Assembly (NCBI GenBank): GCA_048938025.1
Contig: JBHLMP010000063.1
Coordinates: 1-17,878, forward strand
Origin: Promethearchaeota archaeon
GTDB taxonomy: Archaea > Asgardarchaeota > Lokiarchaeia > Sigyniarchaeales > SOKP01
DNA: 17,878 nucleotides
Direction: 5' to 3'
Shown here: positions 7,384 through 13,295 of the stretch, in pieces
How the letters are laid out: every line of letters begins with the position of its first letter
Numbering within the stretch: the first letter of the stretch is position 1
Notes under the pieces: generated by a model
What the model saw: only the letters and a program-made list of their open reading frames with translations
Told to the model about the DNA's origin: nothing
Database searches by the model: none
Program-made: the position numbers and the translations under genes

Positions 7384-7563
7384 ATATATTCACTTCTTTC
7401 GAGATTTTATAGAATCAAATGAATTTTGATTAATTAATTTTATTTTAGACGCTATATTTTGAATATTTACTCAAAATATTCTTATTTTCAAAAAAGTAAA
7501 AAGAATAAATGTTTTTCTAAATTTTTTTAATAAAATAGAAATTCTTAATTTATGAGGATTATT

Positions 7564-8469
7564 ATGTTAAAAGGTATTCATTTTCTTCTAACCTATGCTT
7601 GTAATTATACGTGTGATCATTGTTTCTTGTATTGCAGCCCTAATTCAAAAGGAACATTTACATTAAAACAGATTAAACAAGTTCTTGATGAGGCAGTCAA
7701 GATTGGAACTGTAGAATGGATATATTGGGAAGGGGGTGAGCCATTTCTTTTTTATCCCATCATGCTTGAAGGAATGAGACTTGCTAAGGAAAGAGGGTTT
7801 AAAAATGGAATTGTTACTAATTCATATTGGGCTACGAGTACAGAGGATGCTGAGCTCTGGCTTAAACCTATTACTGAATTAGGTGTAGCAGATTTTAGCA
7901 TAAGTGATGATACATTTCATTTTGAAAACGAATCAGAAAATTTAGCAAAAATAGCAAGAAGAGCAGCAAATAATTTGAAGTTGCCTGCTGATTCTATTAC
8001 TATTAATGAGCCTACGATTAAAGAGGGTATTGATAAAGATCAAGAAAAAGGAGAGCCTGTGATTGGAGGAGGAGCAATGTTTAGAGGAAGGGCTGTTGAG
8101 AAATTAATCGAGGGATTACCCCAAAGACCTTGGACAGAAATGACCGAATGCCCTTATGAAGACTTAGAAGGACTTGGAAGAATTCATGTAGATCCTTTTG
8201 GTAATGCTCACATATGCCAGGGTTTAAGTATTGGAAACTTTTGGGATACTCCACTTTCAGAATTAATCAAGAATTATAAACCAAAAGCCCACCCTATTTG
8301 TGGACCATTAATCAAAGGAGGTCCTGCTGAACTAGTAAGAAAATATAATATTAACCATGAAAATACATATGTAGATGAGTGCCATCTCTGTTATATGGCA
8401 CGATTAGCATTAATAGATAAATTCCCCCAGTATATTGGACCAAAGCAAGTCTTTGGATTAGAAGAATAG
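7564..8469 (+). CDS. Radical SAM protein with C-terminal SPASM/twitch-like Cys cluster
   Basis: CxxxCxxC (CNYTCDHC), EGGEPFL, VTNSYWA, then C...IHVDPFGNAHICQG.SIGN...DECHLC. Start placed at the ATG at 7564 (GAGGA upstream); 7552 is the alternative. Confidence 0.9.
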   Translation: MLKGIHFLLTYACNYTCDHCFLYCSPNSKGTFTLKQIKQVLDEAVKIGTVEWIYWEGGEPFLFYPIMLEGMRLAKERGFKNGIVTNSYWATSTEDAELWLKPITELGVADFSISDDTFHFENESENLAKIARRAANNLKLPADSITINEPTIKEGIDKDQEKGEPVIGGGAMFRGRAVEKLIEGLPQRPWTEMTECPYEDLEGLGRIHVDPFGNAHICQGLSIGNFWDTPLSELIKNYKPKAHPICGPLIKGGPAELVRKYNINHENTYVDECHLCYMARLALIDKFPQYIGPKQVFGLEE

Positions 8470-8479
8470 AGGCTAACAA

Positions 8480-9031
8480 TTGAAAGAGTTTTACATTAAA
8501 ATCTCAAAATTTTTAGCTTACATTTTGAGACATGATCCAGAAAAATTCCATTTACAGCTAGATTTAGAAGGATATGCTGAATTAAATGCTGTTCTTAAAA
8601 TACTAAATACTAGATACCAAGATCAAGAAATTACAAGAGATTTAATTGAAAAAATTATCCTCGAATCAGATAAGAGAAGGTTTGAAATAGTCGAAAATAA
8701 GATTAGAGCATTCTATGGTCATAGTCTAAAGCAGAAAATTAAAATGAAGGAAGCAGAGATTTTACCTCCTTTTTTATTTCATGGGACTACAAAACGAGCA
8801 TATGAAAGGATAATTAAAGAAGGCTTAAAGAGTGAGAATCGCCAATATGTGCATTTATCAGGAAATGTAGAAGATGCTATGTTAGTAGGAAAGCGTAGGA
8901 CGAATAATCCGATAATCCTTAAAATAAATACTAAGACTGCTAAAGAGAAGGGAATAATTTTTTATGAATCTGGAGATTTATATTTAACAGAATTTATCCT
9001 TCCAAATTTTATAAGCAAGTTAGAAGAATGA
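8480..9031 (+). CDS. kptA: RNA 2'-phosphotransferase (KptA/Tpt1 family)
   Basis: SKFLAYILRH, DKRRF, IRAFYGHS, LFHGT, EGL...RQYVHLS, VGKRR motifs. TTG start with GAGG upstream, 10 nt after the radical SAM stop. Confidence 0.93.
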   Translation: MKEFYIKISKFLAYILRHDPEKFHLQLDLEGYAELNAVLKILNTRYQDQEITRDLIEKIILESDKRRFEIVENKIRAFYGHSLKQKIKMKEAEILPPFLFHGTTKRAYERIIKEGLKSENRQYVHLSGNVEDAMLVGKRRTNNPIILKINTKTAKEKGIIFYESGDLYLTEFILPNFISKLEE

Positions 9032-9063: not shown

Positions 9064-11952
9064 TTAAGTTTTTATATAAATTGCTGGTTTATAGGGTATA
9101 GCTTTTATGACGCGATTATTTGGATCATATTCTGAATTGATAATTATTGGATTATTGACTCTTTTTTCAATGTGGTTCTTATATTCTTCTAGTATTTCAT
9201 TCTCATAAAAAGTAAATAATTCTTTTTCCCATATCCTATTTTTAATTTGACTCTTAATATAAGAAATTAAATCTTTATTTTTTATAAGCTCTTTATTTTT
9301 TTTACATTCAGCTAAAATTTCATTAAAGTTCCCTTTTTGTGAAACAATTATTTTTGAAACCTTATTTTTCCAGTTAGGAGCTGTATATAAGTAAATATCA
9401 TTTGAATCTACAGATTTTACTATTTTTTTAATATTTAAGATATCATCTATAACAGTTGCTATGTAGTCATACTCTTTTTCCAGTTTTTCATTAATAAGAT
9501 CCATGTGAAAATCACCCCAAATCGTCTCTGAGATAAAACCTTTATTTCCCATTAATTGCCATAGTTCTTCACATAAATGGGGCATAGTTAAAGAGAGAAT
9601 TTGAATCCAATCAGGAAAAATAATTTTAAATACAATTTTAATATCATCTCGATCCTCACAATATCTAATATAATCTTGTATTAGGTTAAAAACCTCGTAG
9701 AATGATAATTGCAGATATTTCCTTTGATTTAATTCCTCCAATCCTCTTTCTGCCTTAATTAAGATTCTGAGACATTTTGATAAGATAACCTTTGAATACT
9801 TAGATTGAATATTCCCTATTTTTGCTTCAATATCTTTTATCTTTTCTATATTTTCGACCGCAAACATATAAAATCGGTTAATATGATTTTTAACTATTTG
9901 AATCTGTTTCTCTCTCCAATCCATATTTATTCCAAAATCAGCGCTATGAGAGATATAGAGCCTAAATAAATCTGCAGAATAATTTGATTGAATCGAGCCC
10001 ATTTGAATGATATTTCCTTTTGACTTTCCCATTTTTTGACCTTCTATAATTACAGGTTCGATTAACGAAACAATTTTTGGCCAATGCTTTTCCGGAAAAA
10101 TGGCAACATGATGGAAAATATAAAAGCTCAAATGATTTGAGATATGCATTATAGCAGTATGACGATGATCTACTGGATACCAGTAAAGAAATTCATCTTG
10201 CATTTGTTTCAATAACTTAGAATTGATATTCGTCTTATTCGATACGACAGAGAGTTCACCTTTTTCCAGGAAAACAAAATCAAAAAATTCGGGGATTAAT
10301 TGCTCAGGTGTAATATTGTATTTTTTTAGCAAATGAGATATTGTATAGAAACTCATATATATCGTAGAATCACTTAAAGATTCTATAATCCACTCTTTAT
10401 CAAATGGAAGTTTTGTGCCCAAACCTCTCTTTCTAGCACAAGGTCTTTTCTCTAGCCAATGAAAAACGTTTTCGAAATTCGTTCTATATTTTTTAGGGAT
10501 AATAACCATCTTGTTTAAACAATCAAATGCTTTTTGCTTCCAATCCCCTGCATTGAAATTTATAAACCATTGATCCTTCAAAATTGAAACAATTATCTGT
10601 TCTCCACATCTGCATTTAAGACCTTTAGTAATTGGAATGTACAATTTTCCTGCCTTATTATCTTCAATTAGATCATTAATTACTTCGGTGACCACTTCAT
10701 ATACTTTTTTTCCTTCATATTTTTCGCATTTATCGTTTAAAATACCATTATAGAATTCATTTTTGTAATTCTCTGAAGTTGCATTATCTAATTTCTCTAT
10801 GTCTTTTTGTGAGTGAACTTTAAATTTTTCACAATAGATTTTTGCTGGAATATCATCAAATCCATCTAGATCGATAATTTGAATTGGCTCTATATTGTCG
10901 ATTTCTTCCTTATTTAGATTAAATGCTTTAATTATTTTTTCATCTTTTTGTATATCGATTAATGCAATATAGTCATACGGCGCATGAGCCGGTACTGAGT
11001 AAACTACTCCTGTAGCTACCGAAGTATCTACAAAGTTTCCTGGCAAAACTATAAGATCCTTCTTTCCATATACCTCTCTTACTCTTTTGCCAATTAGCTC
11101 CCGTCCTTTTACTTTCTTCAAAATCGTTACATTTTTATTTTGATTTTTCAATAGATCTGTTGCCTCTTCAGATATTATCCATTTCTCTCCATTTACATTT
11201 GCATAAACATAGGTTCCATTTGGATTTAACCATAGATTAGTTGCACCATAAATTGTTTCTGGTCTTAAAGTTGCAGGAACTAAATAAGCATCCTCAAAGG
11301 GAAATTTGATACATATATATTCATTAATATCTAAATTGAGTTCATCTCCTCCTGATATATCATCTTCACCGACTGCATTTTCACATCTGGGACAATACAG
11401 AATTGGGTATTCACCTTTTTCCAAATATCCTAGTTCAGATAAGTGATAGTATTGCCATTCAATAAATTTATTATATAATTCATCTCCAGTAGTAAAATCT
11501 CTTCTCCAATCGATACTCATTCCAAATGATTTAAAATCAATTTCTATTGTATTAGAGAAATATTTTACAACATTCCAAGGATCTATAAAATTATATACAA
11601 TTTCCTCAATTGTTTTTTGATCTTTAGTGTGTAATGACACATAATCTTTCATTCTTTCAATTGTTTCTTGATCGTTCCTTTCAATAGAGGAAGAGATTGC
11701 TAAAACGGGAGTTCCTGTAATATGAAAAGCCATTGGATATAAAACATTATACCCTTTTGCTCGATAATATCTTGCAAAAATATCACCATTTACAAAACTT
11801 CTACCATTCCCGATATGCATTGTACCAGAAGCATATGGATATGGTGATGTAATAAATATCTTTTTCTTATCTGGATCTGGATTAGCTTCAAAAATTTTTG
11901 CTTCTTCCCATTTACCTTGCCATTTCTTTTCTAGTTGTCTTGGATTATACAC
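9064..11952 (-). CDS. leuS: Leucine--tRNA ligase, archaeal type
   Basis: PYPYASGTMHIGN (HIGH), CP1 editing motifs ATLRPETIYG and GVVYSVPAHAPYDY, IESLSDSTIY, KMGKSKGN (KMSKS), C-terminal KAIPYKPAIYI. GTG start 5 nt after GGTGGT. Confidence 0.97.
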   Translation of the reverse strand: MYNPRQLEKKWQGKWEEAKIFEANPDPDKKKIFITSPYPYASGTMHIGNGRSFVNGDIFARYYRAKGYNVLYPMAFHITGTPVLAISSSIERNDQETIERMKDYVSLHTKDQKTIEEIVYNFIDPWNVVKYFSNTIEIDFKSFGMSIDWRRDFTTGDELYNKFIEWQYYHLSELGYLEKGEYPILYCPRCENAVGEDDISGGDELNLDINEYICIKFPFEDAYLVPATLRPETIYGATNLWLNPNGTYVYANVNGEKWIISEEATDLLKNQNKNVTILKKVKGRELIGKRVREVYGKKDLIVLPGNFVDTSVATGVVYSVPAHAPYDYIALIDIQKDEKIIKAFNLNKEEIDNIEPIQIIDLDGFDDIPAKIYCEKFKVHSQKDIEKLDNATSENYKNEFYNGILNDKCEKYEGKKVYEVVTEVINDLIEDNKAGKLYIPITKGLKCRCGEQIIVSILKDQWFINFNAGDWKQKAFDCLNKMVIIPKKYRTNFENVFHWLEKRPCARKRGLGTKLPFDKEWIIESLSDSTIYMSFYTISHLLKKYNITPEQLIPEFFDFVFLEKGELSVVSNKTNINSKLLKQMQDEFLYWYPVDHRHTAIMHISNHLSFYIFHHVAIFPEKHWPKIVSLIEPVIIEGQKMGKSKGNIIQMGSIQSNYSADLFRLYISHSADFGINMDWREKQIQIVKNHINRFYMFAVENIEKIKDIEAKIGNIQSKYSKVILSKCLRILIKAERGLEELNQRKYLQLSFYEVFNLIQDYIRYCEDRDDIKIVFKIIFPDWIQILSLTMPHLCEELWQLMGNKGFISETIWGDFHMDLINEKLEKEYDYIATVIDDILNIKKIVKSVDSNDIYLYTAPNWKNKVSKIIVSQKGNFNEILAECKKNKELIKNKDLISYIKSQIKNRIWEKELFTFYENEILEEYKNHIEKRVNNPIIINSEYDPNNRVIKAIPYKPAIYIKT

Positions 11953-12091
11953 TTTCTACCACCAATTTTTTTATGAGCTCAATAGGGCAATCACCCATCC
12001 TTAATCTTTTTCAAATAAATAAGCACACCAAGCAAACAAATCCGTGGAAAATTTATAAGAAAAAGGTTGAGTGGATTTGTTTCGCTCATAA
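11953..12091 (-). promoter_or_regulatory. Structured leuS leader region (candidate attenuator)
   Basis: Perfect 10-bp helix 12082..12073 with 12043..12034; 8-bp helix 12091..12084 with 11978..11971; U-tracts in the loop; SD GGUGGU at 11963..11958. Confidence 0.6.
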
Positions 12092-12166
12092 TAATAAAAC
12101 TGCTAAGAGTAAATTATCTAAGGATAATCTTGACAATCTTCTTAAAGCAATCTTATTTGAACTCAT
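12086..12166 (-). CDS. Leucine-rich leader peptide (26 aa) upstream of leuS
   Basis: ATG AGT TCA AAT AAG ATT GCT TTA AGA AGA TTG TCA AGA TTA TCC TTA GAT AAT TTA CTC TTA GCA GTT TTA TTA TTA TGA = MSSNKIALRRLSRLSLDNLLLAVLLL*. 10 of 26 residues are Leu; same strand as leuS. Confidence 0.75.
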   Translation of the reverse strand: MSSNKIALRRLSRLSLDNLLLAVLLL

Positions 12167-12190
12167 TGTTATAATAATCTTATCTTTTCT

Positions 12191-12208
12191 TTTATATAAA
12201 TTTTTACT
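12191..12208 (-). promoter_or_regulatory. BRE + TATA box of the leader peptide-leuS transcript
   Basis: Minus strand reads AGTAAAAA-TTTATATAAA. The TATA box begins 34 nt before the leader ATG (12166), which puts the transcription start within a few nt of that ATG. Confidence 0.6.
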
Positions 12209-12248
12209 TGAAAGATTTGAGTAAAAAGACCGAAATATTCAAGAGATT

Positions 12249-13295
12249 CTATTTCACTATAACCATTTCATGCAATGTCTTTCCTTCTTCTTTATATACT
12301 GTTCCGTTATAGAGAATATCAATATTGAATTTCGTATTAAATCTAAAATATCCTGGTTTAAGTCTAAGCAAATATTTAGCAATAAAGCGTAGAACTGGGC
12401 TTAATTCAAATAATAAATTATTACCATCAATAATATCTTGCACTTCAAGTGATACCTGCTGTTGATCGGTTATTTTAAATATTAAAGATTTTGGATAAGA
12501 ATTATTAACTTTTTCATGGTATTGAAAGTTTTCTTGTATTACTTCATATTCACCAGTACTGAGTATTATATTTTCATCTTTAGCTAGCATTAACACTTTT
12601 ATTGGATAATTATCCATCTTTTTATTACATTTAATGTAAGCAAAAATCATCGTAAATGTATCAGAATAGAGACGTCCCCAATACCAATAATCTACAACAC
12701 GAACCATGTTAAAATTAAGCCAATTATGATCGTGATAACCAATACCCTTTACGGACATTTGTTCATTATTTATTTTTATTGTTCCCTCTACATCGGCTCT
12801 CGGAAGAGCTACACACCATCCAAAATGACCTAATTTTCCAAATTGCGTATAACCCTTCCCGGGCATCCACCCATGAACTTTAGCTTTATACATTAAATGA
12901 AAACCAATATCATTTTCATCTAAAAAAACCTCATAGATAGGCAATTTTTCATTTGAATAGTCAGCTTTCACAAAGTTCTTTCCAATTCTTATATCTGCTT
13001 TATCATCTGAAATGACAAAATCAGAATGCTGATAATCAACAATTTTTTGAATTTTTTCACCATCAGGTTTATAAATTACTATTTCTACGCCTGTCTTACC
13101 AGTCCGCTCATGTTTTGCACGAAAAAACCCAACTACTACATATCCATTATCAAGACGAGCATCAAAATACCACCATTCTGTATTACCTTTCTTCTTCATA
13201 TCAATATGTAGAGCATCATACTCTGGTTTAAATTCTGTTATTTCCCCATCTTTTCTTCCAGGACCAGACCACGCTTCTTTAATAATATTTGTCAT
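12249..13295 (-). CDS. CrtC/AttH-like (hydroxyneurosporene synthase / tocopherol cyclase / Diels-Alderase-like) double beta-barrel protein
   Basis: EWWYFDARLDNG and GIGYHDHNW, WYWGR motifs; beta-rich. GAGGAGA ribosome-binding site upstream. Confidence 0.7.
   Translation of the reverse strand: MTNIIKEAWSGPGRKDGEITEFKPEYDALHIDMKKKGNTEWWYFDARLDNGYVVVGFFRAKHERTGKTGVEIVIYKPDGEKIQKIVDYQHSDFVISDDKADIRIGKNFVKADYSNEKLPIYEVFLDENDIGFHLMYKAKVHGWMPGKGYTQFGKLGHFGWCVALPRADVEGTIKINNEQMSVKGIGYHDHNWLNFNMVRVVDYWYWGRLYSDTFTMIFAYIKCNKKMDNYPIKVLMLAKDENIILSTGEYEVIQENFQYHEKVNNSYPKSLIFKITDQQQVSLEVQDIIDGNNLLFELSPVLRFIAKYLLRLKPGYFRFNTKFNIDILYNGTVYKEEGKTLHEMVIVK

Follow-up and report, generated by a model that had tools for sequence, protein, structure and literature searches.

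Leader-peptide attenuation is a textbook mechanism of bacteria, which requires the coupling of transcription and translation as well as hairpin terminators, and the leuL-leuABCD and pheM-pheST leaders of Escherichia coli are its classical representatives. In Rho-dependent attenuation at the tnaC leader of E. coli, free tryptophan acts on the nascent peptide, and the T-box leaders of leuS in Firmicutes couple expression of the synthetase to tRNA charging. Attenuators of leuS and trpS were predicted in Streptomyces (PMC1262725; this and the other reports cited by accession number or DOI are used in excerpt), and polycysteine leaderless open reading frames (ORFs) of mycobacteria control downstream genes via RNA structure at several loci, collectively called a "ribulon" (bioRxiv 10.1101/834739). 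For archaea, a search of the full-text literature, with most subscription journals outside its coverage, returned bacterial or general work only and no description of leader-peptide attenuation. Here we analyse the region ahead of the leucyl-tRNA synthetase gene leuS in a stretch of 17,878 nucleotides (nt) from a Promethearchaeota archaeon (order Sigyniarchaeales; contig JBHLMP010000063.1 of assembly GCA_048938025.1), the whole of which is referred to below as the window. Judging by its conservation in relatives, this region is a real, conserved cis-regulatory leader, and on balance it probably acts as a ribosome-mediated leader-peptide attenuator of archaeal leuS that senses leucine.

The leader mini-ORF and its conservation

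The leuS gene (11952..9064, minus strand) has a GTG start and encodes an archaeal-type leucyl-tRNA synthetase (LeuRS) of 962 amino acids (aa), the product matching TIGR00395 with 955 bits (cut-off 648.5). It is preceded on the same strand by a mini-ORF of 26 codons followed by TGA (12166..12086), in which 10 codons specify leucine, six of them among the last eight, and the last leucine codon directly adjoins the stop. A spacer of 133 nt on the same strand separates the stop from leuS. A TATA-like box (12200..12193, minus strand), scored against the TATA consensus, starts 34 nt before the leader ATG, and given the usual distance between a TATA box and the transcription start, the predicted start of the transcript is therefore only a few bases away from the ATG; the mini-ORF is thus probably leaderless or nearly so. 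In the promoter scan of the region, matches to sigma-70 promoters were at chance level.

A mini-ORF of 26–29 codons ending in Leu-Leu-Ala-Val-Leu-Leu-Leu or a similar string was found before leuS in 26 of 26 loci of the same genus, and no such mini-ORF was present at four more distant leuS orthologs of the same order. Named genome records supplied 80 further leuS loci. Among these, 55 of the 57 Promethearchaeota loci with at least 63% identity in the LeuRS N-terminus carry the mini-ORF, the other two being without upstream DNA, and nothing with this layout was seen at the 23 more distant loci (DPANN, Thor- and Eury-type; 49–60% identity); five of the latter passed a crude leucine filter, but with unlike ORFs.

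Removal of identical copies left 60 distinct leaders, all of which contain the mini-ORF, with a length of 26–32 codons. A TATA-like 8-mer starts 34 nt 5' of the ATG in 39 of them. Leucine accounts for 30% of the whole ORF and for 67% of its last eight codons, and the last leucine codon lies immediately before the stop in 37 leaders, one codon before it in 22 and three codons before it in one; 373 of the 517 leucine codons are TTA. Alignment gaps within the ORF are multiples of three and one-base gaps occur solely after the stop, while the residues between the leucines vary among leaders and the leucines themselves are retained. The locus therefore has a conserved short upstream ORF on the same strand with a fixed stop position, and a run of codons for the amino acid handled by the putatively regulated gene, two features by which attenuators are recognised. 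From its sequence, we infer that the mini-ORF is translated and that ribosomes stall at its leucine codons.

The coding sequence is itself predicted to be structured. A hairpin inside the mini-ORF, designated P1 (12157..12093, minus strand), appears in the fold of the window sequence and, for its outer helix, in the RNAalifold consensus. The outer helix joins 12157..12146 with 12104..12093, i.e., codons 4–7 with the Ala-Val-Leu-Leu codons, and the inner helix of the window fold joins 12142..12129 with 12122..12108 of the same strand. Across the 60 leaders the outer helix is paired in 85.6–92.1% of alignment cells, and five of the six pairs of its inner part changed on both sides.

Two competing folds

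Between the end of the mini-ORF and leuS, five segments of the minus-strand transcript can be combined into two alternative folds. R1 (12091..12073) comprises the last leucine codon, the stop codon and the next 13 nt; R2 (12066..12048) is a pyrimidine tract with a U5 run (12064..12060) and a U4 run (12051..12048); R3 spans 12043..12030; R4 (12020..11997) consists of an AU stretch and a purine block; and the R5 region spans 11996..11971. State I is formed by pairing of R1, with 12087..12073 as the 5' arm, to R3 as the 3' arm; it begins in the stop codon and leaves the U-runs of R2 in its 29-nt loop. State II is a single long hairpin in which R2, as the 5' strand, pairs its U-runs with the downstream purine block of R4, R3 becomes the apical loop, and 12091..12084 of R1 forms the base. 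In the window, its pairs are 12065..12059/12012..12006, 12056..12051/12020..12015, 12076..12073/12000..11997 and, closing the hairpin in R5, 12091..12084/11978..11971. The two states compete for nucleotides at the top of R1, and their nesting is incompatible; of State II, an 8-bp core of R2:R4 alone could form together with State I, as a pseudoknot.

A sequence-only reading of the window had proposed alternative structures between the leader stop and leuS, chosen by the position of the ribosome, and had listed five pairings, (i) to (v). The general proposal is borne out by the folds of truncated and full RNAs and by the footprint model described below, and all five pairings are present letter for letter, (i) and (ii) being perfect complements. 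Helix (i) corresponds to State I, exceeds chance (see below) and is kept in relatives with compensatory changes. The U tracts that had been placed in its loop as item (iii) are the U5 and U4 runs, and in 47 of the 60 leaders the 50 nt that follow the stop contain at least two U4 runs; as foreseen, the U-runs are single-stranded in one structure and paired in the other. Helix (ii), between R1 and R5, is an unremarkable 8-bp match over 106 nt when taken alone, and it gains weight from the R1:R5 pairing seen in the folds of most relatives. In the fold of the window sequence itself, 11996..11985 forms the small hairpin (v); in relatives it is paired as a separate hairpin in only 62% of cells, and a separate "P4 hairpin" was accordingly discarded and its sequence re-read as part of the 3' strand of State II. 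The conserved helix between the U-runs and the purine block was absent from the earlier list, and it makes (ii) and (v) parts of one long hairpin.

Conservation was assessed in an alignment of 60 leaders based on sequence only and in an alignment of 88 leaders fitted to State II and not to State I, with the share of paired cells after sliding one partner strand as a control (slid control). State I is paired in 91.9% of cells in the 60 leaders, with 8 of 15 pairs changed on both sides, and in 90.1% of cells in the 88 leaders, with 10 of 15 two-sided changes and a slid control of 27–46%. For State II, the 60-leader alignment gave 77.2% of cells paired, two-sided changes in 19 of 33 pairs and a slid control of 41–56%, and the 88-leader alignment, which by its fitting favours State II, gave 79.4%, 22 of 24 and 43–58%, respectively. 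Both structures are thus kept in homologous leaders with two-sided changes. The covariation score was reached by none of 500 shuffles in every test, a figure which is not a probability, the leaders being related. An unbiased scan of all column pairs of the 60 leaders ranked first the pairing of the U5 run with the purine block about 50 nt downstream, and in single-sequence folds this R2:R4 pairing is the core of the long hairpin. RNAalifold on MAFFT alignments, one of them of 26 leaders, recovered only P1 and State I; State II emerged from the column-pair scan and the per-sequence folds.

The folding energies give a divided picture with respect to shuffled sequences. The 68-nt stretch 12091..12024 folds into State I with −14.0 kcal/mol (z = −2.63; equalled by 2 of 200 shuffles), whereas the full 139-nt region, at −28.3 kcal/mol, is not exceptional (z = −1.16; equalled by 28 of 200). 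The predicted fold changes with the length of the RNA: RNAs ending before R4 adopt State I in 60 of 60 leaders, and RNAs extending through R5 adopt State II in 58 of 60, with at least 4 bp of R1:R5 pairing in 54 of 60. The latter pairing uses different letters in different lineages. The mean energy of State II is −27.7 kcal/mol versus about −20.0 kcal/mol for State I with the remainder of the RNA.

A conserved structured RNA before a synthetase gene could also be a binding element, contacted by LeuRS as a regulator of its own leader or, in the manner of a T-box, by tRNA-Leu, with the mini-ORF being incidental; the State I stem and the R2:R4 core, which could form a pseudoknot, would suit such a role. 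We consider this very improbable. An Rfam search over 11500..12600 with E values up to 10 returned five weak irrelevant matches, with no leader family and no T-box among them; the same scaffold also precedes non-synthetase genes (see below), and the in-frame gaps together with the fixed stop position argue for translation of the mini-ORF. A T-box-like contact through a UGG-type stretch after R3 was considered and dropped, since by eye the stretch is unconserved.

Ribosome position and the choice of fold

The effect of a translating ribosome was modelled by refolding 59 leaders with the nucleotides from −15 to +12 relative to the A site blocked as the ribosome footprint, a size assumed from bacteria and eukaryotes. 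Without a ribosome, State I of at least 10 bp forms in 58 of 59 leaders, and with the A site at the first leucine codon of the terminal cluster it still does so in 55 of 59. Moving the A site to the last leucine codon removes State I of at least 10 bp in all leaders (0 of 59), at least 6 bp being kept in 31, and moving it to the stop codon leaves neither 10 nor 6 bp in any of the 59. In this model, State I would be prevented only by a ribosome standing on the last codons or on the stop codon, and the choice of fold would have to depend on the presence of a ribosome over the stop-codon region. The leader thus combines mutually exclusive folds with a modelled choice between them by ribosome position, a third feature of attenuators.

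Proposed mechanism and its output

On the attenuator reading, a probably leaderless transcript would start at the 26-codon mini-ORF, the last codons of which are nearly all for leucine. Its R1 would pair either with nearby R3, giving State I with the U-runs exposed, or with distant R5, giving State II with R2:R4 formed. Because R3 is made before R4 and R5, State I would be the first to form as long as R1 is free of ribosomes. State I would be blocked by a ribosome that has stalled on the last leucine codons for want of charged tRNA-Leu, or by one at the stop, and State II would then form once R4 emerges. The exposed double U-run would serve as a termination signal of the aCPSF1/FttA type, so that State I, in which pairing of the U-runs would be hindered, would lead to premature termination (off) and State II, by masking the U-runs, to read-through into leuS (on). 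The outcome would be more LeuRS when Leu-tRNA runs short, the usual homeostatic logic. Masking of an aCPSF1/FttA-type U-tract is probably the output. The direction of the switch, i.e., which state is on, is assigned here by the same reasoning, and the model equally allows the opposite sign.

No intrinsic terminator consisting of a GC-rich hairpin and a U run was found by the terminator scan in 11700..12500 (0 sites), as the sequence-only reading had stated. The proposed output is consistent with several features of the locus and the genome. The window contains at least two U4 runs in about 18 nt or more, the signature given in PMC8716108. According to the same source, aCPSF1 of Methanococcus binds RNA with two U4 tracts and the Lokiarchaeum ortholog works alike. 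The genome encodes aCPSF1/FttA (TIGR03675, 883.2 bits, cut-off 580.2; G000:C33:73970-75853, where G000 denotes the genome of the window). It has further been proposed that FttA and the coupled ribosome exclude each other on the polymerase (PMC11616081).

Several points weigh against this reading. With regard to the folds, the State I stem and the 8-bp R2:R4 core could coexist as a pseudoknot; the 139-nt region is not unusually stable, so the case rests on conservation rather than energy; the State II figures for 88 leaders come from an alignment fitted to State II; and since the leaders are related, the shuffle controls overstate significance. With regard to the ribosome, the footprint size is an assumption, and the upstream leucine codons would stall ribosomes where, in the model, State I still forms (55 of 59 leaders). 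In addition, a ribosome quickly reaching the stop in leucine-rich cells would also block State I in the model, and close coupling might by itself enable the ribosome to prevent termination at the U-runs; either effect would turn leuS on when leucine is plentiful. With regard to the output, a U4 run is lacking in 2 of the 60 leaders and single in 11, and still the pairing persists; the helix is thus clearly under selection, whereas for a terminator this is only a possibility. Moreover, the R4 block resembles a TATA box, so there may be an internal promoter of leuS.

It is also conceivable that the same sensor and the same RNA states act through another output, namely stability or processing of the mRNA, with the AU-rich R4/R5 exposed to or hidden from a nuclease, or translation of leuS, with altered ribosome loading on the A-rich spacer. 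The missing hairpin-plus-U terminator and the two leaders that keep the helix without any U4 run would be expected then, and the segment order points the same way, as State II forms after the polymerase has passed the U-runs, by which time intrinsic termination there would be beyond its influence; the cysteine mini-ORFs of mycobacteria, as the nearest leaderless case, act on translation, as far as the excerpt goes (bioRxiv 10.1101/834739). On the other hand, the ribosome-binding region of leuS, an A-rich spacer with a Shine-Dalgarno-like site (11970..11953, minus strand), lies outside the conserved switch, is poorly conserved among leaders and is not complementary to the switch. Helix (iv) of the sequence-only reading, which was supposed to sequester the Shine-Dalgarno site, proved to be at chance level in the window when that segment was tested for duplex formation with the 22 nt preceding the leuS start (z = −0.74), and it is not conserved (z of −2 or lower in 2 of 58 leaders). 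Neither state extends within about 25–60 nt of the leuS start codon, and no nuclease site is known. We therefore regard a different output of the same sensor as unlikely, and masking of the U-tract is retained as the probable one.

Related leaders in the family

A covariance model of State II found matches in 108 of 135 genomes of the family, representing 11 of 13 genera. Twenty second or weaker matches and then 20 further matches were inspected; six of the downstream proteins were searched against Pfam, and the others were judged by eye from their N-termini. The second 20 included nine copies of loci already in the set and two new leuS leaders. Leaders with a leucine tail precede bacterial-type leuS genes in another genus of the family (L152:1801-1917 in G114 and L155:1801-1928 in G098) and genes of an archaeal LeuRS that is only about 40% identical (L163 and L164). 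The most frequent other target, with 12 of the first 20 matches (L145-L150, L153, L156-L159 and L161) and two later ones (L176 and L183), is the gene of a protein of about 480 aa of the FrhB_FdhB plus TrmB type, the leaders of which have tails rich in isoleucine and valine: in 11 peptides judged by eye, the last eight residues contain 3–5 Ile and 1–3 Val. In an example locus, the leader is located at L145:150-272 and the gene at L145:332-1780. Small ORFs of 45–65 aa follow four of the first 20 matches (L151, L154, L160 and L162) and seven of the second 20 (L177-L182 and L184), mostly after leaders with Val/Leu-rich tails. One genome, G098, contains both a leucine-tailed leader before leuS (L155) and a valine-rich leader before a small ORF (L180). 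That the tails follow the downstream gene speaks for codon-specific sensing; the non-leuS targets have no evident link to isoleucine or valine.

Some properties of these targets may be added. The protein of about 480 aa has N- and C-terminal FrhB_FdhB domains, a 4Fe-4S motif and a TrmB-type DNA-binding domain. The small ORFs are of two kinds, have strong Shine-Dalgarno sites, and one kind ends in tryptophan; their leaders are weaker members of the family.

Within the genome of the window, the covariance model detected one weak relative of the leader (G000:C62:16229-16358, corresponding to L162:151-280; 36.5 bits), the mini-ORF of which has no hydrophobic tail in the called frame, and an nhmmer profile of the leader found the window's copy only. 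A genome-wide scan for TATA-preceded mini-ORFs with a tail of one amino acid yielded 7 (strict) or 27 (looser) candidates, and the leuS leader was the sole conspicuous case among them; judged by their first residues, the genes behind the other candidates seemed unrelated, no family search having been made on them. Any census with the covariance model needs filtering, since the model also scores the antisense strand of several leaders at 26–45 bits (e.g., L004:2424-2544:+) because the long hairpin is nearly symmetric.

These leaders bear on the explanation that nothing is sensed, the mini-ORF being an independent gene of a small hydrophobic peptide with its own U-run terminator, the helices serving the small transcript, e.g., by stabilising its 3' end, and the promoter of leuS residing in R4. 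Such an arrangement would account for the U-runs, which in 41 of the 60 leaders are placed 22 nt after the stop, and for the resemblance of the R4 block to the leader's own TATA region, and paralogous leaders with Ile/Val tails before unrelated genes would make a hydrophobic tail their common feature. It is at odds with the covariation of R4 and R5 with R2 and R1, which places R4 and R5, as RNA, on the transcript that also carries the mini-ORF, and with the link to leuS across three LeuRS lineages. The tails are also Leu-rich and Ile-free before leuS and contain 3–5 Ile before the FrhB-type gene, and the conserved N-terminal residues of the peptide are explained by helix P1. We consequently hold the absence of sensing to be improbable.

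Going beyond the attenuator reading of the leuS leader, we tentatively suggest that Loki-type Asgard archaea may possess a family of ribosome-gated switches built on one scaffold, with the tail codons setting the amino acid and masking of a U-tract as the output, which would be the first class of amino-acid-responsive cis-regulatory RNA known in archaea. If this possible but still doubtful generalisation were true, leucine would be sensed before three kinds of leuS, and isoleucine or valine before the FrhB-TrmB-type gene and small proteins. It would also mean that attenuation was re-invented on a eukaryote-like termination machinery, aCPSF1/FttA being a homologue of the eukaryotic CPSF73 nuclease.

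Leucine metabolism and genomic surroundings

The genome, with a size of 3.5 Mb and a completeness of 96.7%, contains two LeuRS genes. The second, on another contig, is bacterial-type (G000:C48:88733-91699; TIGR00396, 952 bits); its product has 988 aa, of which the part beyond about residue 780 is not covered by the leuS_bact model and hence constitutes a C-terminal extension. No mini-ORF rich in cognate codons was found upstream of this leuS, of valS or of ileS in this genome. By eye, a tRNA-like sequence with an apparent intron is located about 130–20 nt upstream of valS (G000:C73, start 19541).

The regulatory domain of LeuA (LeuA_dimer) was not found in this genome, which is 96.7% complete; it is also missing in 14 of 21 other searched genomes of the genus and present in 39 of 81 members of the class. 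Two LeuRS genes and no LeuA domain suggest that the regulated copy may matter for life on imported leucine. Where leuA is present, a leucine-run mini-ORF precedes it in 20 of 20 loci of the family or order with at least 300 nt upstream, a count from which one locus with 131 nt upstream and two truncated loci were left out, and no such mini-ORF was found at leuA of other families of the class (0 of 7 loci). The leuA mini-ORFs, found in relatives (L122-L144), have four to six terminal leucine codons, lie 82–99 nt upstream of the gene and are followed by a GC-richer hairpin. Being of a different hairpin design, these leaders provide a weak analogy for the direction of the leuS switch.

Upstream of the leader lies a gene for a protein with CrtC/Svf1-type lipocalin domains (13295..12249, minus strand); between this gene and the leader promoter there is a single U5 run. 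Downstream, a gene convergent with leuS encodes a Tpt1/KptA RNA 2'-phosphotransferase (8480..9031, plus strand), and beyond it lies a gene of a radical-SAM protein (7552..8469, plus strand).

Comparison with known systems

If the attenuator reading holds, it bears on the sensing of amino-acid supply in largely uncultured, probably amino-acid-fermenting organisms, on the functional coupling of archaeal ribosomes and RNA polymerase, and on the gating of FttA access by translation, put forward as a hypothesis in PMC11616081.

The leuS leader shares its general layout with bacterial attenuators: a leader ORF rich in cognate codons is located directly upstream of leuS, and the mutually exclusive folds would be chosen by ribosome position. 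As with pheM-pheST and the Streptomyces leuS and trpS leaders, the target is the synthetase gene for the sensed amino acid. Like a T-box, it would be a cis-acting leader linking synthetase expression to tRNA charging; unlike a T-box, it has no Rfam match, and sensing would go via translation of leucine codons and not via direct binding of tRNA.

Two further systems resemble it in part. As in tnaC/Rho-dependent attenuation, a ribosome at the end of the leader ORF would decide on access to a factor-loading site after the stop; here, however, aCPSF1/FttA would be the loading factor, a conserved helix additionally masks the site, and charged tRNA-Leu would act as the signal. With the cysteine ORFs of mycobacteria it has in common a probably leaderless mini-ORF with a codon run for a single amino acid and a design shared by several loci. 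It differs from that type, as described in the excerpt, in lacking the hallmark of a translational attenuator, pairing over the ribosome-binding site being at chance level (z = −0.74; 2 of 58 leaders).

The signal itself is similar to archaeal U-tract terminators in having at least two U4 runs within about 20 nt, the minimum given for aCPSF1 binding, and in the presence of the factor in the genome (PMC8716108). Those terminators are constitutive gene ends, and the excerpts of PMC8716108 and PMC11616081 describe no conditional masking by a fold or a ribosome.

The departures from the bacterial attenuators concern the Asgard host, the probably leaderless mini-ORF, the absence of a GC hairpin with a U tail and of an Rfam match, and the position of the U-runs, unpaired in the loop of State I and paired in State II. 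The leader is most likely a leucine sensor gated by the ribosome, in a design for which no archaeal description was found. What would be new in that design is that there is no hairpin terminator, that the ribosome sensor sits exactly at the stop codon, and that a U-rich signal is either hidden or shown; instead of the 1:2, 2:3 and 3:4 pairings of bacterial attenuators, the competition here is between 1:3 and 2:4 plus 1:5.

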